Origin: an uncultured Pseudomonadales bacterium
Lineage (GTDB): Bacteria > Pseudomonadota > Gammaproteobacteria > Pseudomonadales > JAUIET01
Assembly: GCA_964352475.1 (NCBI GenBank)
Contig: CAYGSL010000023.1
Coordinates: 1-57,386 of the forward strand
Reading direction: 5' to 3'
Length of the DNA: 57,386 bases
Made by a program: the position numbers and the translations under genes. Each line of letters starts with the position of its first letter. Position 1 is the first letter of the stretch. This document shows positions 2,099-13,619 of this stretch, one piece after another. The notes below the pieces were generated by a model that made no database searches, was not told where the DNA came from, and was given only the letters and a program-made list of their open reading frames with translations.

Positions 2099-3076
2099 GT
2101 GGATTCACTGTTTTTCAGTAATTTAACATCACCGCCGCTTCTATTCTTTTTGCTTGGCGTGTTCGCGGTTGCGATTCGTTCGGACCTGGATATACCTGAC
2201 CAGGTTGCGAAATTCCTGTCATTGTATCTACTGTTTGCGATTGGTTTTAAAGGCGGCGTTGCTATAGCCGAAAGCGAGCTTACTGTGCTTGTTGCTCGCG
2301 ACTTATTACTGGCGACCGCATTGTCTGCCGTCATTCCATTCTATGTTTACTATGCGGTGAAACGGCAGTTCGGATCGGCCAATGCTGCGGCCACGGCAGC
2401 CACCTATGGCTCAATCAGTGCTGTAACATTTGTTACGGCCATTAGCTATCTGGATGCAGGAGAAATCGAGTGGAGTGGCTATATGGTTGCCGCGATGGCC
2501 TTGATGGAATCACCTGCAATTATTGTAGGGTTGTTGTTGTACTACCGCAGTCAGTCCAGTGTGGACGAGAATAGTAGTGCAACTGTGGGCGAGATGGTCC
2601 ATGAGTCCTTGAGCAATGGTTCTGTCTTGTTGATAATCGGTAGCCTGGTGATTGGGTGGATATCCGGGCCCGCCGGCCTCGCTCAAGTCGACTTACTCGT
2701 CAAGGACCTGTTCATAGGCGTTTTGTGCCTGTTTCTACTTGATATGGGTATTGTTGCCGCCAGAAGACTGCAAGATCTGGGTAGCGCGGAAGTAAACATC
2801 TCTAAGCTGCTTTTCTGGGGTCTATTGTTACCTCTGGTCAATGCCGTTGTCGCATTAATGCTGGTTGTTGGATTCAGCCTTACTGAAGGCAATGCTCTTC
2901 TACTGGTTGTTCTGGCCGCGAGTGGCTCCTACATCGCGGTGCCAGCTGCAATGAGACTTGCTTTGCCGCAGGCTAGCCCCAGTGTTTACTTACCAATGTC
3001 GCTGGCGATCAGCTTTCCATTCAATCTGGTCATAGGAATACCACTGTATCATCAGCTCATAAACTGGCTTGCCTAG
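2099..3076 (+). CDS. sbtA: Sodium-dependent bicarbonate transporter family permease (short SbtA form)
   Basis: NLTSPPLLFFLLG, YLLFAIGFKGG, YGSISAVTF, MESPAII, SYIAVPA, FPFN..IGIPLY; about 10 TM; followed by a PII-like gene. Confidence 0.9.
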   Translation: MDSLFFSNLTSPPLLFFLLGVFAVAIRSDLDIPDQVAKFLSLYLLFAIGFKGGVAIAESELTVLVARDLLLATALSAVIPFYVYYAVKRQFGSANAAATAATYGSISAVTFVTAISYLDAGEIEWSGYMVAAMALMESPAIIVGLLLYYRSQSSVDENSSATVGEMVHESLSNGSVLLIIGSLVIGWISGPAGLAQVDLLVKDLFIGVLCLFLLDMGIVAARRLQDLGSAEVNISKLLFWGLLLPLVNAVVALMLVVGFSLTEGNALLLVVLAASGSYIAVPAAMRLALPQASPSVYLPMSLAISFPFNLVIGIPLYHQLINWLA

Positions 3077-3091
3077 AGAGGTTGCCACTGT

Positions 3092-3388
3092 ATGAAACCA
3101 TGTAAGCGTATTGAAATTGTTATAGAACACCCTCTAGCGCCAAGACTTGCCAAATTGCTGGTAAAACTAGGTGCGCCTGGTTACACAATGATTGATGGTG
3201 CGAGCGGTTGTGGTGACCGTGGCACGCGACGGGCGGATGAGATTACTGGTATCTCCAGCAACAGCGTTTTTATTATTGCCTGTGATGATGCTGAGCTTAT
3301 CGATGCAATTGTAGAGGGAATTAGGCCAATATTGTCCATATCCGGTGGCATGTGCTTAATCTCCGATGCACAATGGGTAAGGCACTGA
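3092..3388 (+). CDS. sbtB: PII-like regulator of SbtA
   Basis: 98 aa, KRIEIVIE...GYT...SGCGDRG PII-like pattern; directly downstream of sbtA; GAGG RBS. Confidence 0.85.
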   Translation: MKPCKRIEIVIEHPLAPRLAKLLVKLGAPGYTMIDGASGCGDRGTRRADEITGISSNSVFIIACDDAELIDAIVEGIRPILSISGGMCLISDAQWVRH

Positions 3389-4633: not shown

Positions 4634-5035
4634 CTATGTGTCAGTTCGACACATATCGGCCATAGGTTTGAAAGCGTCCATAAGTGCTCGTTGCCAGTGC
4701 GGGTCCAAATCACTTTGATCCAAAGCGTGTTGCATACACATTAACCATTGGTCACGTTCTGCGTCGCCAATTGCGAACGATGAGTGTGCAGCGGGTATCA
4801 CTACTGAACCGAACTTTTCCTGGTAGCGTCGCGGGCCGCCCATCCAGCCGATAAGAAACGTTGCCAGCTTGTCTATCATGGGCTCCAGGTCGCCTTTATG
4901 CATTTCGCGTATGGGCTTGCACTCCGGTAGTTCATCCATTTTTTGGTAAAACACTCTGACCATCTGACGCACCGCAGCTTCGCTGCCAAATGCTTCAAAC
5001 GGAGTAGCCGCATCTGATGTTGAAGCTGCGGTCAT
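4634..5035 (-). CDS. glbO: Group II truncated haemoglobin (trHbO-like)
   Basis: VRVFYQKM, FLIGWMGGP.RY, proximal His in PAAHSSFAI, ERDQWL.CM; last gene of the kshA operon. Confidence 0.85.
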   Translation of the reverse strand: MTAASTSDAATPFEAFGSEAAVRQMVRVFYQKMDELPECKPIREMHKGDLEPMIDKLATFLIGWMGGPRRYQEKFGSVVIPAAHSSFAIGDAERDQWLMCMQHALDQSDLDPHWQRALMDAFKPMADMCRTDT

Positions 5036-5078
5036 TGCGACAAGTTGCCCGATGACAACACTGAGCTACAATCCGCAA

Positions 5079-6293
5079 TCACAGGAACGTATCATCGTTT
5101 TCCAGGCCCATCATCGTCCTACCCAGATTCCGACCAATCTTTCCAATGTTGTTTGCAACATGGTTTCTACCGGCATTGATATCCAGCCAGGCACGATTGA
5201 TGGGGTGGTCGCGATAAATACCTTGCGCACCTGAGAACACGTAGAGTTCGTTCACTGCTTCAGCGCAGCGAGGTGCCACCTGGGCAGCGTCGAAACGCAT
5301 CTTTAAACGTTGATCCAGGTCTACTTGCTTACCCGAGGCGGCGTGCTCCAGCATAATGTCGAAATTCTTGTACATTATGGTTTTACATTCGTCGATAGTG
5401 GCTCTGGCGCGAGCAACTGATAACTGCGCCCCAGGGTCTAACGAAACATTCTTGCCGTCATTCAAACCAACTCGGTCTCGATTAATTTTTACAAAAGCGT
5501 CCAGCGCGCTTTGCAAAGCCCCGATTGAGGAGGAGCTTACGGCGCGCACAAAAATCTGACCAAATGGTATGTGATATAAAGGCGCAGAGTTCAGTGCATT
5601 CCCAGGACTCTGGCAGGCAAACCCGTCCAGCGCACGGTGTGTGCGGTGTTCCGGCACGAATTTGTTCTCAACCACAATATCATTACTTCCGGTACCCTCC
5701 AGACCGCTCACGTTCCAGTTATCAACAATGGTGTAATCGCTGCGCGGGACCAGGAATGTGCGATAGTCTGGCGCTTCCCCAGGTTCGCCTCGAGGCACCA
5801 TGGCGCCCAGGAAAACCCAGTCACAATGTTTGGAGCCGCTGGAAAAACTCCAGTGTCCCGACAATTGATAGCCGCCGTCTGTGGGTACTACTTTGCCTAC
5901 CGGCATATACGATGACGAGACTAATGTGCTGGCATCCTTGCCCCAAACGTCTCTTTGCGCCTGCTCCGGGTACAGTGCTAATTGCCAATTGTGAATGGCA
6001 ACCACACCCAGCACCCAGGCCGCTGACATGCAACCTTCTGCCAGTTTGATTTGCACGTCAAAAAAATCTTTTGGTGCTAACTCAAGGCCGCCATGGCGTA
6101 GTGGTTGCAGAATTTTGAAAAAACCAGCGGCTTGCATTTCGTCGATGGTTAGTTGTGGCAGTTTGCCCAATCGCGCTGTCTCTTGTGCTCTTGAGCGCAG
6201 AGCAGGAACCATAGCTTCCGCACTTGCAAGCAGTTTGTTGCGCATGTCGTCTCGGCTATAGGTTGTTTCAGTAGTGTGAAGTGCTTGGGCCAT
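5079..6293 (-). CDS. hsaA: Flavin-dependent monooxygenase oxygenase component, HsaA/TesA1-like (3-hydroxy-9,10-seco-steroid 4-hydroxylase)
   Basis: Acyl-CoA-dehydrogenase fold: WVLGVVAIHNWQLAL, VWG.D...VSSSYMP, GHWSFSSG..HCDW, GLEGTGSND; ATG at 6293 with AGGAG RBS. Confidence 0.82.
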   Translation of the reverse strand: MAQALHTTETTYSRDDMRNKLLASAEAMVPALRSRAQETARLGKLPQLTIDEMQAAGFFKILQPLRHGGLELAPKDFFDVQIKLAEGCMSAAWVLGVVAIHNWQLALYPEQAQRDVWGKDASTLVSSSYMPVGKVVPTDGGYQLSGHWSFSSGSKHCDWVFLGAMVPRGEPGEAPDYRTFLVPRSDYTIVDNWNVSGLEGTGSNDIVVENKFVPEHRTHRALDGFACQSPGNALNSAPLYHIPFGQIFVRAVSSSSIGALQSALDAFVKINRDRVGLNDGKNVSLDPGAQLSVARARATIDECKTIMYKNFDIMLEHAASGKQVDLDQRLKMRFDAAQVAPRCAEAVNELYVFSGAQGIYRDHPINRAWLDINAGRNHVANNIGKIGRNLGRTMMGLENDDTFL

Positions 6294-6339
6294 GATAGGT
6301 GCTCCTGGTAGCAATGAGTCAGTAGATTAGGGATTCGTA

Positions 6340-7248
6340 TCAGGTACCCCAATAGTGTCCCCAGACGCTGGGTTTCGCACTGCGAGTAGGGGTGAATGAT
6401 GCCCAATCACACTGCAGGCCGCCGAAGCCGATTTCTATCGCAAATCCTGAAGGAGATTCCACGTAAGTGGATACCATTTGGTCGTTGGTGTGGCGCCCCA
6501 GCGGCGTTACAACCTTTACTTCGTTTTGCCTGATGCGATCCATCATTAACCCCAATTCATCCATGTCAGCGACCTCGACCATCAGATGCACCAGATTGCC
6601 ATCGGCCGGTTGATCACTTTCAAACAGGGCGATGCTGTGATGACGCGGATTGTTGCAGTGCAAAAAGCGCAAGCCCTGGCCCGGGTGGTTGGCGTCGTCC
6701 GGATTGAAGTAGAAATGCATGTAGTCTGTGAGTCCAAAACCAAGAACCGATACGAAAAAATCGTGACTCACCTGCAAGTCGGGCGTTGCCACCGCTATGT
6801 GGCCCAAACCCATATCTCCAAACCGGCCAGTGACAAATTCCTTAACACCTACAGGTGACTGAAGCGGTTGATAGTCAAGCATGGGGGTATGGCACAATTC
6901 GAGTTCAATACCACCTGGTGCTTGTAAGCTGACAAAGTCATCAACCTGGCGCAGGTTCGCTTCGGTCTTTGAGCCCTGAGTAAAATCGATGCCCTTTTCT
7001 GTGAGTTCGATTAGCGCATGCTTGAAATCGTTTTCGTCTTGTAACTGCCAACCGGCGAGCTTAAAGCGGTTTTCCGAACTTTCAGCGATAATAAAGCGGC
7101 AGGCGAAGTCATCCATTCTAATGAACTTGAAACCAGGTTGGTCAGATCGTTCGAATACCGGCATGCCCAGAACGTTTTGCGCAAACCGCTGCCAATTTTC
7201 AAGATCAGTTGTTTCAATGACAACGTAAGCCAGTGATCGTACGTCCAT
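6340..7248 (-). CDS. hsaC: Type I extradiol dioxygenase, HsaC/TesB/BphC family
   Basis: MDVRSLAYVVIE start, GLGHI, HCNNPRHHS, HLMVEV, LGRHTNDQMVSTY..PSGFAIE (Fe ligands His, His, Glu). Confidence 0.85.
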   Translation of the reverse strand: MDVRSLAYVVIETTDLENWQRFAQNVLGMPVFERSDQPGFKFIRMDDFACRFIIAESSENRFKLAGWQLQDENDFKHALIELTEKGIDFTQGSKTEANLRQVDDFVSLQAPGGIELELCHTPMLDYQPLQSPVGVKEFVTGRFGDMGLGHIAVATPDLQVSHDFFVSVLGFGLTDYMHFYFNPDDANHPGQGLRFLHCNNPRHHSIALFESDQPADGNLVHLMVEVADMDELGLMMDRIRQNEVKVVTPLGRHTNDQMVSTYVESPSGFAIEIGFGGLQCDWASFTPTRSAKPSVWGHYWGT

Positions 7249-7254
7249 GTAAAA

Positions 7255-8316
7255 CTATCCTAAGGTCACATGCTCTTTGCGTTTTTGCAATTGTGCTGGG
7301 ATATCAGCAACATCCATATAAAACTGGCTATACCATTTGCGTACCAGGTTTATCGGGCCATCGCCGTCACACAAAACCGGATTGTCAACACGTACCTTGT
7401 TGTTCCAGATTTCAACATCCTGAATAAAGGAATCTATATTCATTTGAGTATTTTCTTCTACTCTTTGTTGATTTTCCTCTTCAGACAGCCGAGGATCTTT
7501 GCGCATCATCACACCGAAACGTATATCAAAAGAATCTAATGTTACCGGCGTATGACTAACCAGAAGGTGAACCTTGGTATCTTCCCCATCCATACTGCCA
7601 GTCATGGTTGTTGTCATGTAGGCGGGGCCTTCGTATGTTGCGACACTGGTCATCGGTGTGTCACCCTCGGTCAGGATTTCATGCCCGCCTTCCATGAACT
7701 GCGTGAAGGTATGACCATCGAGCAAATTACTAAACTTGGCCACCTTGGAGTAATGCACTGGGCCAAAATGCCCCATATCAGCCATGTTATCCACCAGCTC
7801 CCGGCAGTTGCTGTCGATGCGAATGGTGGTCATTGTCCAATCTGTCCATTCCTCGGAATGCCAATCGTCATTGCGTCGTGGTTCCTGCTCAGCGATTGAT
7901 GGTTTGCGCTCATGGTCATGCCATACAAACACCAGTCCGTTTTTTTCCAGAACTTCCCAGCCGCGAATCTTCGCCTTGTCCGGAATTTTATTGGCATAGG
8001 GTATGTCGGTGCATTCGCCATCGCCATTCCATGACCAGGCATGGAACGGGCAAACAATGTCATTGCCGTGCACGCAGCCCTTACTCAAGTCAGCACCCAT
8101 GTGCGGGCAGTAAGCGTTTATAGCGTGAACGGTATTGTCTTCTGCACCGCGCCAGACGGCAATTCGTGTGCCGAAGCACTCAATCATTTTGGGTTTCGTG
8201 CTGAAGTCATGCTGCGAGCCAATAACGTGCCAACCGCGCGCGTATCTGTCTTCAACTTCCGACGCGATAATGATGTGTTCCTTACTCAGGTTCTTCAGTT
8301 TTTGCTCGGCGGTCAT
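7255..8316 (-). CDS. kshA: 3-ketosteroid 9-alpha-hydroxylase oxygenase subunit (Rieske)
   Basis: RYARGWH, Rieske CPHMG...CPFHAW, NCRELVDNMADMGHFGPVH, DVEIW.NK...NPVLCDGDGP. Confidence 0.87.
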   Translation of the reverse strand: MTAEQKLKNLSKEHIIIASEVEDRYARGWHVIGSQHDFSTKPKMIECFGTRIAVWRGAEDNTVHAINAYCPHMGADLSKGCVHGNDIVCPFHAWSWNGDGECTDIPYANKIPDKAKIRGWEVLEKNGLVFVWHDHERKPSIAEQEPRRNDDWHSEEWTDWTMTTIRIDSNCRELVDNMADMGHFGPVHYSKVAKFSNLLDGHTFTQFMEGGHEILTEGDTPMTSVATYEGPAYMTTTMTGSMDGEDTKVHLLVSHTPVTLDSFDIRFGVMMRKDPRLSEEENQQRVEENTQMNIDSFIQDVEIWNNKVRVDNPVLCDGDGPINLVRKWYSQFYMDVADIPAQLQKRKEHVTLG

Positions 8317-8376
8317 TAGGTTTCTCTGTCAGCGTTAAGGTTGCAAATAGCTTAGTAAGTACCCATCTATTTGAAA

Positions 8377-8390
8377 TTGATCTAGATCAA
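8377..8390 (-). promoter_or_regulatory. FNR box upstream of the kshA operon
   Basis: Perfect TTGAT-CTAG-ATCAA; -10-like TAAGCT on the minus strand (8354-8349) 22 nt away, i.e. class II (-41.5) geometry. Confidence 0.8.
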
Positions 8391-8464
8391 CCGGGCAGGT
8401 TTGTGAACTTTCCTACATCCAATCTCAAATGCCGGCAGCGTATGCACTGCCTGTCGCCACTCAG

Positions 8465-8478
8465 TTGATCCATGTCAA
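8465..8478 (+). promoter_or_regulatory. FNR box upstream of hemN
   Basis: TTGAT-CCAT-GTCAA; TAGTCT at 8501-8506, 22 nt downstream. Confidence 0.8.
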
Positions 8479-8539
8479 TGTCGAACGGAGCATCTGCGCC
8501 TAGTCTTTAATCCTGACAAATTCGCTGGGTTCCAAAAAT

Positions 8540-9988
8540 ATGCGTCAAAACATCGCCCATAAAACGGTGCCTTACAGTCAACAGCTGGATCGTCAGATTT
8601 TCCAACAGCCGTTAACTGCACCCGAATGGAGTACCGAGACACTAAGTCGCTACAATCTTCGCGGTCCTCGCTACACTTCCTATCCTAGCGCCAACGAATT
8701 TAAAGACGCCTACAACCCTGAACTTTACAAGCAGGCATTGACACAGGCGCAGCACAGCGAAGACGCTCTGTCGCTGTATATCCACATTCCATTTTGCGAA
8801 AACATTTGTTACTACTGCGCATGCAATAAAATAGTCACCCGCGACCGCAGTAAGGCTGACACATACCTTGACTATTTATACAAAGAAATAGCAATGATCG
8901 CCAAATTGCTGGGCAATAAACGTGAAGTCAAGTCGCTGCACCTTGGCGGTGGAACGCCAACTTTTCTTGACCATGCGCAGCTTACAGAACTTATCTATCA
9001 GCTGGCCGCCAGGTTCAACTTAAGCAGTTCCGATCAACGTGAATTCAGTATCGAAATTGATCCGCGAACAGTACACAACGATACGCTGAATTTGCTCCGG
9101 GGCCTTGGTTTTAATCGCCTAAGTCTTGGTGTGCAAGATTTTGATGAAGGAGTGCAGAAAGCAGTTAACCGGATACAGGCGTTTGAGCACGTGAGCGACC
9201 TGGTTGCTCAGGCTCGTGTTACCGGCTACGAGTCTATTAGCTTTGATTTGATTTACGGCCTACCAAAACAGAACAGCAGGTCTTTCGAGAGAACTATCGA
9301 TCAGGTGTTGGACTTAATGCCTGATCGAATCTCTTTGTACAATTACGCACATTTGCCCGCGCAAGTGTCGTCACAGCGTTCCATTGATCGTATGCAATTG
9401 CCCAGCGCAGATGAAAAGCTGGCGATGTTATGCATAGCCGCAGAAAAGCTACAGCGGAATAACTACTGCTATATTGGCATGGACCATTTTGCGCTAGCCA
9501 GTGATGAAATGTCGATTGCAGCATCCACTGGGCGGCTGCAGCGTAGCTTTCAGGGTTATTCTGTTGTGCACGCGCCGGAAACGATTGGTATGGGGGTTTC
9601 GGCAATTAGTTCTTTAGCCGATATGTACGTACAAAACCTTAAAGTGCTTGATGAGTATTACGCTGTGCTCGATCAGGCCCAATTACCGATTGCACGTGGT
9701 TTGAGTCTTTCAGGCGATGATAAAATCAGGCGAGATGTTATCAATCAGATCATTAGCACCCTGTCTTTAGACAAAAATGCGTTCAAGCAACAAGTGGGTC
9801 AGGATTTCGATCAATACTTTGAGGCAGCACAAGAAGGCTTGCGTCAAGCTGAGCGCGACGGCCTTGTTAAGCTAAGTTCTGATGCTGTTGTCGTTACTGA
9901 AACAGGACGCTTATTATTGCGCAATATATGCATGCTGTTTGACGATTACCTGCCTACTTCCAGCGGTCAGTTCTCGCAGACTATTTAG
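8540..9988 (+). CDS. hemN: Oxygen-independent coproporphyrinogen III oxidase (radical SAM)
   Basis: GPRYTSYP, LYIHIPFCENICYYCACN, GGGTPT, IGMDHFA, QRSFQGY. Confidence 0.96.
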   Translation: MRQNIAHKTVPYSQQLDRQIFQQPLTAPEWSTETLSRYNLRGPRYTSYPSANEFKDAYNPELYKQALTQAQHSEDALSLYIHIPFCENICYYCACNKIVTRDRSKADTYLDYLYKEIAMIAKLLGNKREVKSLHLGGGTPTFLDHAQLTELIYQLAARFNLSSSDQREFSIEIDPRTVHNDTLNLLRGLGFNRLSLGVQDFDEGVQKAVNRIQAFEHVSDLVAQARVTGYESISFDLIYGLPKQNSRSFERTIDQVLDLMPDRISLYNYAHLPAQVSSQRSIDRMQLPSADEKLAMLCIAAEKLQRNNYCYIGMDHFALASDEMSIAASTGRLQRSFQGYSVVHAPETIGMGVSAISSLADMYVQNLKVLDEYYAVLDQAQLPIARGLSLSGDDKIRRDVINQIISTLSLDKNAFKQQVGQDFDQYFEAAQEGLRQAERDGLVKLSSDAVVVTETGRLLLRNICMLFDDYLPTSSGQFSQTI

Positions 9989-10099: not shown

Positions 10100-10837
10100 A
10101 TGTTAAAAAGTAGTGAAAGCCCCGCTTGCCCGCACAACGCCAACGTCAGCTGTGGAGATTGCCGCTTGTCCAGCATTTGTCTGCCGTTGTCCTTAGACTC
10201 TGAAGACATTAGCAAACTTGATCAGATAGTAGAGAAAGGCGCTCAACTGCAGCGTGGTGAAATCCTCTATAAACAAAATGGTGAGTTTCGTTCTGTGTAT
10301 GCGGTGCGTGCTGGTGCGATAAAGGCTTATCACATAGACAGCGGTGGTCAGGAGCAGGTAGTGGGTTTCTATCTTCCGGGTGAAATTTTGGGCACAGATG
10401 GCATTGGCGGGCATCGCTACAACAATACAGCGGTTGCTTTAGACACAACAGCTGTATGTGAAATACCGTTCGCGCAGCTTGAAAAGTTAAGCACAGAGTT
10501 ACCTTTTCTACAGCGTCACTTTTTCAGAATCATGAGCCGCGAGATTACCGACGACCAGAAAATGCTGACTCTGATTAGTAAAAATACGGCTGATGAACGC
10601 TTGGCCTCTTTCCTGATCAGTTTGTCTACCCGTCATGCGCAGCGGCAGCTTTCTGGAAGCCAATTTCTGTTGCCCATGTCACGACAAGATATAGGCAATT
10701 TTCTAGGCCTGACTGTTGAGACAGTGAGCCGTGTTTTCACGCGTTTTCGTAAAAAACTACTGATTGAAGTTGACGGAAAACAGGTTCAAATACTCAACAT
10801 TGATGCGCTCAAAGAAATAGCCCGTGTTGCGCCCTAG
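10100..10837 (+). CDS. fnr: FNR/ANR O2-sensing transcriptional regulator
   Basis: CGDCRLSSIC Cys cluster, VCEIPF, HTH LGLTVETVSR. Confidence 0.95.
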   Translation: MLKSSESPACPHNANVSCGDCRLSSICLPLSLDSEDISKLDQIVEKGAQLQRGEILYKQNGEFRSVYAVRAGAIKAYHIDSGGQEQVVGFYLPGEILGTDGIGGHRYNNTAVALDTTAVCEIPFAQLEKLSTELPFLQRHFFRIMSREITDDQKMLTLISKNTADERLASFLISLSTRHAQRQLSGSQFLLPMSRQDIGNFLGLTVETVSRVFTRFRKKLLIEVDGKQVQILNIDALKEIARVAP

Positions 10838-11003: not shown

Positions 11004-11242
11004 GAGTTTGTCCTGTTGTTTACCGATTTACTCTGTAGCTACCACGCTAGTATTTGGTTTCTAGCCAGTAAGTAGCGAAGTATCAGCATGGACCAGGTTG
11101 GGTGTTTTGCCATTGATCTGCGTCAATCATTTGCCATTCCTTGTGCCCATCCTGGGTATCCGTTTGACGTTGTTTAACATGCCGGAGCTCACCGCACCCA
11201 GCAATGGGATTGACAGATGGATGGGGCCACTTAGGGGGCGGG

Positions 11243-11851
11243 TCATGGCTCGTAAGTGATACGCTTCCACTCATCACCGTGCAACTCATAGGCAATACGG
11301 TCTTTAATGTTACGCCAGCCAGCGCGCCAGAACTCAATTCGACCGGGCACTACTCTATAAGCTATCCAATTCTCCGGAAGCGGAACCTCGTCATAGCCAA
11401 ACGATTCTCGCGTCTTACTAAGGCGTTCTTTATGCGAGTTTGCACCACGTGAGTGATCTGATTGGTTGCTGGCCCACGCGGCAATTTGCTTGGTTCTGTC
11501 TCGTTTTCGCCACAGGGTGTCGGCTTCTGCCAAAGAGGTGGCTATGGCCTTGCCTTCAATAATGAGTTGTTGACCCAGCGTATTCCAGTAGAAACAAATC
11601 GAAACTTGTGGGTTCTCTGATAGCTGAATTCCCTTGCCAGAGTTTTTATTGGTAAAGAATGAAACGCCGTATTCGTTGATGTCAGCGGCCAGAATATACC
11701 GTACCGATGGTTTAGCGTCCAAGCCACAGGTAGCCACTGACATTAGCATTATGTCCTTCTCACCAGCGCTCTTGGCGTCTTCCAGGCAATCCACTAATTG
11801 AGAGTAAGCATCATCCGGCATTCTGGGATCTTCTGAGTATGAGGTATTCAT
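11243..11851 (-). CDS. pdxH: Pyridoxine/pyridoxamine 5'-phosphate oxidase family protein
   Basis: MSVAT...PSVR, FFTNKNSGKG.QL.ENP, AWASNQS, PLPENW.AY.V.P.RIEFW. Confidence 0.8.
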   Translation of the reverse strand: MNTSYSEDPRMPDDAYSQLVDCLEDAKSAGEKDIMLMSVATCGLDAKPSVRYILAADINEYGVSFFTNKNSGKGIQLSENPQVSICFYWNTLGQQLIIEGKAIATSLAEADTLWRKRDRTKQIAAWASNQSDHSRGANSHKERLSKTRESFGYDEVPLPENWIAYRVVPGRIEFWRAGWRNIKDRIAYELHGDEWKRITYEP

Positions 11852-11910: not shown

Positions 11911-11924
11911 TTGATTCATATCAA
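11911..11924. promoter_or_regulatory. FNR box between divergent pdxH and CDF genes
   Basis: Perfect TTGAT-TCAT-ATCAA; TACTTT (+, 11947-11952) and TAAATT (-, 11888-11883), each 22 nt from the box. Confidence 0.8.
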
Positions 11925-11975: not shown

Positions 11976-13106
11976 ATGAACGAACGATATAAAGAATTGC
12001 GCAAGGTCACGATTATTGGTGCGATCGCCGATTTCTTGCTGGGTGTGGCAAAACTGACAGTGGGGTGGCTGGCAAATTCCCAAGCATTGGTTGCCGACGG
12101 AATACACTCATTTTCAGATTTGGCTACCGATGCGTTTGTACTGTACGCCGCAAAGCATTCAAACAAAGAGGCTGATGCAGAGCACCCTTATGGGCATGGT
12201 CGCATTGAAACTTTGGCAACGGTTGTTCTGGGCGCAACCTTGATTTTGGTTGCCCTTGGAATCGCGGCAGACGCTATCATGCGTTTAATCAATGCCAACG
12301 AGTTACTCACACCCGGAGCCTTGGCGTTGTTGGTCGCCGCTCTGTCCATTGCCAGCAAGGAATGGATATATCACTACACAATTCGCGCTGCAAAAAAGTA
12401 TAAGTCTGACTTGTTACGGGCCAATGCCTGGCACAGCCGCTCGGATGCAGTGTCTTCCATCGTTGTGTTGATTGGCATAGGCGGGGCCATGCTTGGTTAC
12501 CCATTACTGGACGCGGTTGCAGCGGTGGTTGTTGCTGTAATGATCGCTAAGGTCGGTTTTGATCTGGCGCGCTCCAGCAGCGAGGAGCTGATCGATTCCG
12601 CGCTGGATGAAGAAGAAACAGAAAAGCTTCAACAAATAATGCGGGCCGTTCCCGGAGTACGGGCAGTGCATGAATTGCGTACCCGCACTAGCGCTGGCGA
12701 TGCATTTGTGGATGTGCACATACAGGTAGACCCTAAACTGAGCGTTTCAGAAGGCCATCAAATCGGAGACTCAGTACGTAGCGCATTGTTGAATGGGAGT
12801 GAACACGTCAGTGATGTAACGGTGCATATAGACCCGGAAGACGATGAGAACGAACACCTCAACGCGGCTTTGCCCAGTCGACAAAGCTTGATAGAGTCCT
12901 TGTCTGAATGCTGGCCGAACGTTCCAGTTTCAGAGCTGAACAATGTGCGCTTTCACTTTCTGTCTGGTTCGGTGCATGCTGAGCTGATACTGCCTATCAG
13001 TGTGCTCTCCAACAGCGACGATGCTGAACAATACGTGAGTGAATTGCGCGAAGATATCGTTACGCTGCCCTACGTATCTGAATTGAAAGTACTGTTCAAA
13101 CCATAA
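11976..13106 (+). CDS. Cation diffusion facilitator transporter with C-terminal extension
   Basis: SQALVADGIHSFSD, HPYGHGRIE, AWHSRSD, SVSEGHQI, VTVHIDPE. Confidence 0.9.
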   Translation: MNERYKELRKVTIIGAIADFLLGVAKLTVGWLANSQALVADGIHSFSDLATDAFVLYAAKHSNKEADAEHPYGHGRIETLATVVLGATLILVALGIAADAIMRLINANELLTPGALALLVAALSIASKEWIYHYTIRAAKKYKSDLLRANAWHSRSDAVSSIVVLIGIGGAMLGYPLLDAVAAVVVAVMIAKVGFDLARSSSEELIDSALDEEETEKLQQIMRAVPGVRAVHELRTRTSAGDAFVDVHIQVDPKLSVSEGHQIGDSVRSALLNGSEHVSDVTVHIDPEDDENEHLNAALPSRQSLIESLSECWPNVPVSELNNVRFHFLSGSVHAELILPISVLSNSDDAEQYVSELREDIVTLPYVSELKVLFKP

Positions 13107-13110
13107 TGAT

Positions 13111-13124
13111 TTGACCTGGATCAA
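13111..13124 (+). promoter_or_regulatory. FNR box upstream of usp
   Basis: TTGAC-CTGG-ATCAA; TACACT at 13146-13151, 21 nt downstream. Confidence 0.75.
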
Positions 13125-13181
13125 GGGTTTTGACTGCAAAGTCTTTACACTTTGAGCTGTGAAATCAGGAGGTGTGGAACA

Positions 13182-13619
13182 ATGAGTGCTTACAAAAAGA
13201 TCCTTGTTGCAATTGATACTTACGGAGAAAATGAATACAACACAGTTATTCAACGTGCGCAGGAGTTGGCTAGCGAAGAATCTGAACTCAGCCTGATATA
13301 TGTGCATGAGCCTTTTTACTATGGCGATATGTTGTATGCAGGTAGCGTTGAAATTGAAAAGCAAACCAATGCCAGAGCTAAATCAGTACTCGCTGAAGTA
13401 GCGCAACCTCTGGGTATTCCGGAAGACCGCCAGTTTGTAGAAACTGGCCGACCTGCCAGCGAAATACACGCTAAGGCTGAAGAGATTGAAGCCGATTTAA
13501 TCGTGCTGGGTACTCATGGTCGCCATGGTTTGCAGCTGATGCTCGGCTCAACCGCAAATGCCGTGTTGCATGGCGTAAAGTGCGATGTTTTGGCGGTACG
13601 AGTGCCGGCTGACAAATAG
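13182..13619 (+). CDS. Universal stress protein
   Basis: YKKILVAID...GRP..EI...ADLIVLGTHGRHG...LGSTANAVLH..CDVLAV; AGGAGG RBS before ATG 13182. Confidence 0.92.
   Translation: MSAYKKILVAIDTYGENEYNTVIQRAQELASEESELSLIYVHEPFYYGDMLYAGSVEIEKQTNARAKSVLAEVAQPLGIPEDRQFVETGRPASEIHAKAEEIEADLIVLGTHGRHGLQLMLGSTANAVLHGVKCDVLAVRVPADK

Follow-up and report, generated by a model that had tools for sequence, protein, structure and literature searches.

An FNR box precedes a conserved operon for KshA-, HsaC- and HsaA-like oxygenases and a truncated haemoglobin in an uncultured Pseudomonadales bacterium

Background

Aerobic steroid breakdown uses oxygen as a co-substrate at three early steps, and KshA, HsaA and HsaC catalyze the three oxygen-consuming steps of the 9,10-seco pathway, by which rings A and B are opened. 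In actinobacteria, steroid genes are found in large clusters controlled by KstR. The subject of this analysis is a different arrangement, located in a 57,386-nucleotide stretch of DNA (hereafter the window; contig CAYGSL010000023.1, positions 1 to 57,386) from an uncultured Pseudomonadales bacterium (GenBank assembly GCA_964352475.1). Here, genes of the kshA, hsaC and hsaA families and a gene for a group II truncated haemoglobin (trHb) form a four-gene operon behind a perfect recognition site for the oxygen-sensing regulator FNR (FNR box).

In Pseudomonas aeruginosa, Anr/FNR controls both hemN and the O2-dependent hemF, so that an FNR-type regulator raises an oxygen-requiring enzyme when oxygen is scarce. 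Hypoxia-adapted catabolic oxygenases are represented by the subfamily I.2.C extradiol dioxygenases of microaerobic degraders of benzene, toluene, ethylbenzene and xylene (BTEX), and we know of no FNR box or globin that forms part of these systems. The physiological role of group II truncated haemoglobins is still debated. The promoter of the Vitreoscilla haemoglobin (VHb) gene, vgb, is activated by FNR at low oxygen, and VHb has been proposed to hand oxygen to terminal oxidases and, in engineered strains, to a Rieske 2,4-dinitrotoluene dioxygenase, according to a review (PMC3962134).

Strains of Zhongshania, Halieaceae and BD1-7 grow on cholesterol according to two reports (PMC5790920; bioRxiv 10.1101/775916), the first of which also places steroid-degrading Halieaceae and Spongiibacteraceae in oxygen-minimum zones, sediments and sponges. 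Within the excerpts returned by a literature search, no link of KshA to the FNR transcription regulator was found (where a meaning was shown, FNR stood for ferredoxin-NADP reductase), nor was any operon link of a truncated haemoglobin to steroid oxygenases, the truncated haemoglobins being named there just as stress defences. The unit described below is a real, conserved oxygenase-plus-globin operon with predicted FNR control, and apparently one that has gone unreported.

Results

Operon layout and promoter

The operon is made up of four co-oriented open reading frames (ORFs) on the minus strand of the window (4634-8316), in the order kshA-hsaC-hsaA-trHb. The first gene, kshA-like (7255-8316), encodes a Rieske oxygenase of the 3-ketosteroid 9alpha-hydroxylase family (PF00355, PF19298) and is followed by an hsaC-like gene (6340-7248) for a two-domain type I extradiol (meta-cleavage) dioxygenase (PF22632, PF00903), an hsaA-like gene (5079-6293, or to 6314 with a TTG start) for the oxygenase component of a flavin-dependent phenol hydroxylase, and trHb (4634-5035), the last gene, for a group II (trHbO-type) truncated haemoglobin (PF01152). 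The kshA-hsaC gap is 6 nt and the hsaA-globin gap 43 nt, with no terminator-like or promoter-like minus-strand site in the latter. An AGGAG motif located 8 nt upstream of the hsaA ATG at 6293 makes this codon the likely start; the hsaC-hsaA gap is then 46 nt, compared with 25 nt from the earlier TTG at 6314. The gaps of 6, 46 and 43 nt that had been reported in a preliminary description of this DNA, prepared from the letters alone, agree with these ORF positions.

FNR box 1 (TTGATCTAGATCAA, 8377-8390) is a perfect TTGAT-N4-ATCAA site whose centre lies 67.5 nt from the kshA ATG, and a -10-like hexamer, TAAGCT (8349-8354, minus strand), starts 22 nt after it. Box 1 is proposed as the class II activator site of the oxygenase-globin operon, and its class II distance from a -10-like hexamer, also pointed out in the preliminary description, is confirmed by these coordinates. 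FNR box 2 (TTGATCCATGTCAA, 8465-8478, one mismatch) is the site of the divergent hemN gene, and TAGTCT stands at 8501-8506, 22 nt after box 2 on the hemN side. The boxes are 88 nt apart within one 223-nt kshA-hemN intergenic region and, because each has a TAnnnT hexamer 22 nt downstream on its own side, the spacer takes the form of a symmetric class II-type promoter pair. The minus strand of this spacer yielded no sigma-70-like promoter that includes a -35 element.

The whole arrangement is kept in a second genome of the genus (G002), where both boxes are perfect and the TAAGCT hexamer of box 1 sits in a block of conserved sequence. Between the boxes, TTTGTGAACTTTCCTACATCC (8400-8421) is likewise conserved in G002 while its surroundings vary, and it may be the site of another regulator. 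A TAnnnT hexamer 21-23 nt past the box was found in all 8 non-redundant trHb-operon promoters, the sequence in between being unrelated, and in 10 of 41 box-bearing promoters overall, compared with none of 41 in a mirror-image control. A palindrome near TCGTCC-N4-GGACGA was observed ~22-38 nt past the FNR box in the Halieaceae-type kshA promoters of loci L047, L050, L052, L055, L056, L032, L044 and L186, and is absent from the kshA promoters of G002 and of the source genome (hereafter G000). It suggests the operator of a second, perhaps substrate-responsive, regulator.

Oxygenase components

The family-level identity of each product was established by profile models and solved structures. The kshA product matches PF00355 (75.2 bits) and PF19298 (225.9 bits, cut-off 23.3), and its nearest solved structures are KshA of Rhodococcus and Mycobacterium tuberculosis (E 1.4e-93 to 3.4e-81; residues 14-348 align to 4qdf at 1.4e-93), the next Rieske family reaching only 4e-18. 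The Rieske CxH...CxxH residues C70, H72, C89 and H92 are invariant in 35 KshA orthologues and align to the KshA structures. Also invariant in the 35 orthologues are D176, D180, H183, H188 and D300, and the D/H/H/D iron-site columns, which we take to bind iron, are conserved. The protein has a Rieske domain and a KshA-type catalytic domain, from which 9alpha-hydroxylase activity is predicted.

For the hsaC-like protein, the nearest solved structure is 2zi8 (4.4e-52), which we take to be M. tuberculosis HsaC, versus ~1e-38 for BphC-type chains. HsaA is by far the top model for the hsaA-like protein, the next being p-hydroxyphenylacetate hydroxylase at 232 bits, and its nearest solved structures are the 3-HSA hydroxylases 2rfq and 3afe (3.3e-80).

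Truncated haemoglobin

The globin matches PF01152 (Bac_globin) at 94.7 bits (cut-off 21), and its nearest solved structure is the 2-on-2 haemoglobin 2xyk (7.6e-22), followed by other HbO chains. All operon-linked copies share F29-Y30, H46, H84 and W97, of which Y30, H84 and W97 presumably occupy helix positions as the B10 Tyr, the proximal His and the G8 Trp. Each of five genomes with a globin-containing operon carries 2-5 Bac_globin genes in all, and a separate ordinary trHbO copy is present in every examined genome. In the globin tree, the operon-linked copies fall outside the clade of these ordinary copies (support 87/94) and form a polytomy, by which a single origin is neither supported nor refuted. 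A predicted complex of KshA, HsaC and the globin scored 0.00 against a mark of 0.32, which speaks neither for nor against binding.

Conservation of the box

At orthologous loci, the 260 nt that precede kshA or hsaA were scored for a box with at most one mismatch. A KshA alignment was obtained at 80 genome loci, 20 of which encode a KshA at least 59% identical to that of the window, and 18 of these 20 have the box. In a KshA search of 401 genomes of the order, 30 had a close KshA, and among 17 additional loci that were not duplicates, 16 had the box. The pooled set without duplicates comprises 36 orthologous loci, 33 of which carry the box upstream of kshA or hsaA, compared with 14 of 226 other ORFs in the same loci; box density over all fetched loci was 0.054 per kb. 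Metagenomes contributed 15 loci with KshA at least 59% identical (not de-duplicated against the genome loci), and the box was found at all 12 for which upstream DNA was visible. By these counts, which overstate independence since the loci are kin, the FNR link of the operon is judged to exceed chance.

The orthologous loci span at least eight family codes and have unrelated housekeeping genes as neighbours. A conserved genomic context of the module was considered and rejected, given that neighbours differ from locus to locus. A single clade of the KshA tree holds the box-bearing sequences (19 rows, SH-aLRT 100; 17 of 19 with box). Neither its sister clade (Zhongshania, Spongiibacter and Litorivivens type, G035) nor the Pseudomonas and Burkholderia homologues have the box.

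Two further genomes of the comparison carry hemN-fnr without the operon. In G001, of the same genus, the pair has a single box, TTGATCCACGTCAA, near-identical to box 2; in G003 there is no box within one mismatch. Box 1 can be assigned to the oxygenase operon, and not just to hemN as had been considered in the preliminary description, on the strength of this comparison and of the 33 of 36 orthologous loci with a box, hardly any of which have hemN close by (when G000 and G002 are set aside, the box is present, far from any hemN, at 31 of 34 non-redundant loci).

In two other lineages, an fnr-like gene (47% and 55% identity to the FNR of the window) is divergent from kshA, while a third lineage has a hemN-like gene immediately upstream of kshA (L186 of G322, 2-508; metagenome loci L220, 596-1291, and L221, 3-509). 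With these neighbours, the operon sits with FNR-regulon genes more than once.

Recurrence of the four-gene unit and paired modules

A perfect box followed by kshA-hsaC-hsaA-trHb was found in three families, namely in G002, in G360, G066 and G190 (family code f3), and in G286, G161 and G391 (f18); G077, also of f18, has kshA-hsaC-trHb. The conserved gene order behind a perfect box upholds the earlier assignment of the globin to the oxygenase unit. The hsaA-globin gap between tblastn matches is 2 nt in G066 and G190 and 6 nt in G360. In G035 and G131 (locus L060), trHb is convergent to kshA-hsaC, and the L060 trHb has a perfect box of its own. Halieaceae-type loci show the order hsaA-(hsaC)-kshA, often with separate boxes for hsaA and for kshA. 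The distribution of the operon in the genus is patchy: besides G000, it is present in one of five genomes (E at most 1e-125).

Genome G360 carries two kshA-hsaC-hsaA modules 22 kb apart (C1:607385-611052 and 630005-633324; loci L192 and L193), with KshA proteins 55% identical to each other. One has a perfect FNR box and trHb and is followed by unrelated genes, and the other has neither box nor adjacent trHb. At ~2.4 kb, the box-less module has HsaF/HsaG-type genes of the meta-cleavage pathway as neighbours, namely those for 4-hydroxy-2-oxovalerate aldolase and acetylating acetaldehyde dehydrogenase (both well above cut-offs), and an HsaD-like gene is found a few kb beyond these. G360 is accordingly annotated here as having a putative main cluster with the O2-independent steps and an extra, predicted low-oxygen set of the O2-consuming steps only.

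A box-less Zhongshania-type module (L063, L067 and L093) is accompanied by a 3/3 single-domain globin (PF00042, 47.7 bits; L063 15516-15977, minus strand). Its gene lies ~2 kb past hsaA, beyond a pyruvate kinase gene, so that a similar oxygenase module has a member of another globin family near it.

FNR and its sites in the window and genome

Divergent from the operon, hemN (8540-9988, plus strand) encodes the oxygen-independent coproporphyrinogen III oxidase (TIGR00538, 551.4 bits, cut-off 325). It is followed by fnr (10100-10837, plus strand; NF008365, 265.2 bits, cut-off 228), which was unmentioned in the preliminary description and is the presumed reader of the boxes. Its product has Cys18, Cys21 and Cys27 (Cys-x2-Cys-x5-Cys), Cys120 and an ETVSR recognition helix (E-x-x-S-R), residues whose roles we assume to be those in Escherichia coli FNR, and by these features and its model score it is a bona fide FNR. 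The earlier description of hemN as divergent with its own box holds; its suggested role in haem supply does not go beyond adjacency, and hemN-fnr are paired without the operon in G001 and G003.

The window contains two perfect TTGAT-N4-ATCAA sites and ten sites with at most one mismatch, versus 2.7 expected (none of 100 shuffles reached ten), and the whole genome (133 contigs, 97.6% complete) has 29 perfect sites versus ~4.2 expected from base composition. Genes that have an intergenic perfect site 40-120 nt ahead of them include hemN/kshA, a pdxH-like and a CDF gene, ompW (with two such sites) and a cytochrome c gene. To judge from its position before hemN, ompW, cytochrome c and usp, the motif is a marker of typical FNR-regulon genes in G000. 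No FNR box was found in promoter position at the other KstD-, HsaD-, HsaB-, HsaA- or KshA-like genes of this genome.

The second perfect box of the window, TTGATTCATATCAA (11911-11924), lies between a pdxH-like gene (11243-11851, minus strand) and a divergent CDF cation-efflux gene (11976-13106, plus strand), its centre 66.5 nt and 58.5 nt from the respective starts; with the pdxH-like pyridoxamine-phosphate oxidase, a further enzyme that uses O2 would stand behind such a box. A one-mismatch box (13111-13124) directly precedes a universal stress protein gene (13152-13619, PF00582), and more one-mismatch boxes occur at 11113, 15387 and 15671. Elsewhere in the genome, ompW (G000:C31:33768-34631) has two perfect boxes 70.5 and 119.5 nt upstream.

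Steroid-like gene content of the source genome

G000 contains six KshA_C paralogues (above the Pfam cut-off, NCBIfam offering no KshA model), three HsaA-like genes, one gene for an HsaB-like flavin reductase, ~3 KstD-like genes and one or two for HsaD-like hydrolases, all scattered. The operon holds the sole full-length HsaC-like gene, the other match being an 87-residue fragment at a contig end (C19). As candidates for a main cluster, the KshA_C loci on C3 and C13, the HsaA-like loci on C1 and C9, the HsaC fragment on C19 and the HsaD-, HsaB- and KstD-like loci on C21 and C12 were rejected as non-canonical; the C14, C53 and C111 loci lay outside this hunt. With one full-length HsaC-like gene and other copies lacking boxes, there is no clear sign that the operon duplicates a main set in G000. 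It may be the only ring-cleavage set of this genome, or another set may be hidden by the assembly. The preliminary description had foreseen paired isoenzyme sets, and such a pair occurs in G360, with one module carrying box and globin and one box-less; in G000 no main tes/hsa cluster was recovered.

One distant KshA_C paralogue lies in a separate region (G000:C1:125000-133600; L039 8146-16548) together with genes for a cytochrome P450, an HsaA-like protein, two SDRs, a zinc alcohol dehydrogenase and a member of the epimerase/3beta-HSD family. This region, which has no FNR box nearby, may hold a further set for the oxidation of steroids or terpenoids.

Profile scans of the window (Pfam and NCBIfam) showed no kstD or hsaD among the flanking genes of the operon, as had been noted before, and no reductase, KstD or HsaD gene occurs within it (no search was aimed at KshB). 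The flanks contain nhaA, an sbt-type transporter and a PII-like gene; the Sbt_1-family (bicarbonate transporter-like) gene and the small PII-like gene after it (2099-3388) are present in a host that is a heterotroph.

Discussion

The reading that we consider probable on balance is that kshA-hsaC-hsaA-trHb is activated by FNR and provides three ring-opening oxygenases together with a dedicated helper globin at low oxygen. Under such conditions, FNR with its iron-sulfur cluster would bind box 1, centred ~41.5 nt upstream of the transcription start, and recruit RNA polymerase to the weak TAAGCT promoter, which has no -35 element. The transcript would encode the oxygenase components that open rings A and B of the steroid nucleus or of a closely similar polycyclic substrate, with the KshA-like enzyme predicted to perform 9alpha-hydroxylation, the HsaA-like enzyme to convert the resulting phenol to a catechol and the HsaC-like enzyme to cleave the catechol in meta position. 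The group II trHb would serve these enzymes, most likely by holding or feeding oxygen and less likely by protecting their ferrous iron centres, and the reductases, dehydrogenase and hydrolase would be supplied from elsewhere in the genome.

Several observations weigh against parts of this reading. Strict class II TAnnnT spacing is found in just the 10 of 41 box-bearing promoters, and in Halieaceae kshA promoters the box and the start codon are separated by 104-118 nt, with the TCGTCC-N4-GGACGA palindrome between them, so that promoter geometry is not uniform. The box is missing from three of the 36 orthologous loci (L033, L068 and L190). Conservation of both box and trHb beside kshA had been looked for in relatives; the former held, while the globin, for all its recurrence in three families, is not adjacent at 28 of the 36 loci (several on short contigs) and is thus not obligatory. 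Group II truncated haemoglobins have a very high oxygen affinity and release oxygen very slowly, by which storage or chemistry fits better than delivery. Regarding the substrate, the hsaC-like protein scores 245.3 bits on the NCBIfam HsaC model (NF045631, cut-off 450), about equal to its 249.2 bits on the BphC model (cut-off 366), and the hsaA-like protein scores 404.7 bits on HsaA (NF045629, cut-off 450). All steroid-like genes of G000 that were scored on NCBIfam equivalog models fall below cut-off, and neither a canonical steroid (tes/hsa) cluster nor a second full module was found in this genome. Given that the operon has no reductase, KstD or HsaD gene, its substrate assignment depends on homology alone.

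The role of the globin is the part for which another explanation survives best. Instead of supplying oxygen, it might protect the ferrous-iron and flavin enzymes by removing NO, or peroxide from uncoupled turnover, or act as a redox partner, which we regard as possible but somewhat unlikely. Group II truncated haemoglobins are credited with peroxidase and NO-related chemistry, and non-haem Fe(II) oxygenases are sensitive to NO. A preprint on a steroid-degrading BD1-7 relative lists truncated haemoglobins among oxidative and nitrosative defences. Speaking the other way, the 97.6% complete assembly of G000 yielded neither a NirS match nor, above cut-off, a NirK match, from which it would make no denitrification NO of its own, and this apparent lack of nitrite reductases weakens a role in NO defence. 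An ordinary trHbO copy is moreover already available in every examined genome. In G360 the globin is tied to the presumed low-oxygen module and not to the box-less one, and this predicted co-transcription argues for a role in oxygen supply, a link that is qualified by the 3/3 globin near the box-less Zhongshania-type modules.

A second alternative accepts the regulation as proposed and replaces the steroid by another phenolic or polycyclic substrate, such as a terpenoid, biaryl or lignin-derived aromatic compound. It would account for HsaA and HsaC scores below the equivalog cut-offs and for the equally good BphC match, for a module that travels as a free cassette amid unrelated housekeeping genes, and for the many loci with kshA and hsaA only. 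Close KshA homologues of Pseudomonas and Burkholderia have no hsaA or hsaC nearby, and the six KshA_C paralogues of G000 have no assigned role. Against it, all three proteins have a steroid enzyme as nearest relative among solved structures, with wide margins for KshA and HsaA, G000 has three KstD-like genes as well as HsaD-like genes, and the trio corresponds to the three 9,10-seco steps. The host families also include cultured cholesterol degraders, according to the two reports (PMC5790920; bioRxiv 10.1101/775916). A non-steroid substrate is held to be rather unlikely, and steroid is put forward as the probable substrate on the grounds of homology, of the fit between trio and pathway and of the published cholesterol growth of relatives.

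A more far-reaching version of the preferred reading is an oxygen relay, in which a dedicated trHb, produced only once FNR senses low oxygen, would capture nanomolar oxygen and pass it directly to matched, high-affinity steroid oxygenases, with a box-less module, as in G360, serving in air. In this full form we think it unlikely. Were it true, the 'aerobic' 9,10-seco pathway would be open to marine gammaproteobacteria in oxygen-minimum zones, on particles, in sediments and within animal hosts.

The sign of regulation could also be reversed, with FNR shutting off O2-dependent enzymes that are useless in anoxia and the operon being expressed in air. Such a switch would be a sensible economy, FNR-repressed promoters too carry sites upstream of the start, and box position alone does not set the sign; the Halieaceae spacing and the share of promoters with strict class II geometry also leave room for it. 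Repression is nevertheless improbable, because in all eight four-gene operons the box takes the place of the -35 element at class II spacing, no independent sigma-70-like promoter was found and the operon sits with hemN or fnr in several lineages. Nor would a simple off-switch predict the arrangement in G360, where the module of the main catabolic cluster is box-less and the extra copy has box and globin.

That box 1 is a second, distal FNR site of hemN only, placed before kshA by an accident of insertion, would fit the two boxes 88 nt apart in one intergenic region, the tandem Anr boxes at hemN in P. aeruginosa and the restriction of the arrangement within the genus to G000 and G002, and yet is highly improbable given the single box-2-type box at hemN-fnr of G001, the lack of any box within one mismatch in G003 and the 31 of 34 box-bearing loci far from hemN.

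If FNR activates the operon as preferred above, it gives a testable mechanism for oxygenase-dependent catabolism at very low oxygen. It would be the natural counterpart of adding Vitreoscilla haemoglobin to pollutant degraders, and would provide a defined metabolic partner for group II truncated haemoglobins. Where a genome has a box-and-globin module as well as a box-less one, the isoenzymes stand ready for comparison. The recurrence of the unit of this marine bacterium in several related families suggests a built-in way to run oxygen-needing breakdown where oxygen is scarce.

Comparison with known systems

The actinobacterial KshA, HsaA and HsaC belong to the same protein families, share the catalytic motifs and are the best solved relatives of all three proteins. 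In contrast to the actinobacterial set, the three oxygenase components stand alone here, in the order kshA-hsaC-hsaA and without KshB, HsaB, KstD or HsaD genes in the operon, with an FNR box in front and a globin behind, and with HsaA and HsaC below the equivalog cut-offs.

Vitreoscilla haemoglobin offers the closest likeness on the side of the globin, as a bacterial globin under FNR at low oxygen and a proposed oxygen donor to a Rieske dioxygenase. VHb is a 3/3 single-domain globin with fast oxygen release, encoded by a stand-alone gene, and its pairing with an oxygenase was engineered, whereas here a 2/2 group II globin is naturally linked in an oxygenase operon, the coupling being known from gene linkage alone. 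The I.2.C-type systems resemble the present case in having separate low-oxygen isoenzymes for aerobic ring cleavage, of which the module pair in G360 would be a genomic version; they are defined by enzyme kinetics and ecology. The Anr/FNR control of haem genes is matched by the presence here of hemN with a class II-spaced box, and differs in that it concerns housekeeping biosynthesis and not a catabolic oxygenase set with a globin. The parts are all of known kinds, and what is new is their natural and conserved combination, in which catabolic oxygenases and a truncated haemoglobin form one operon behind an FNR site and some genomes have box-less paralogues as well.

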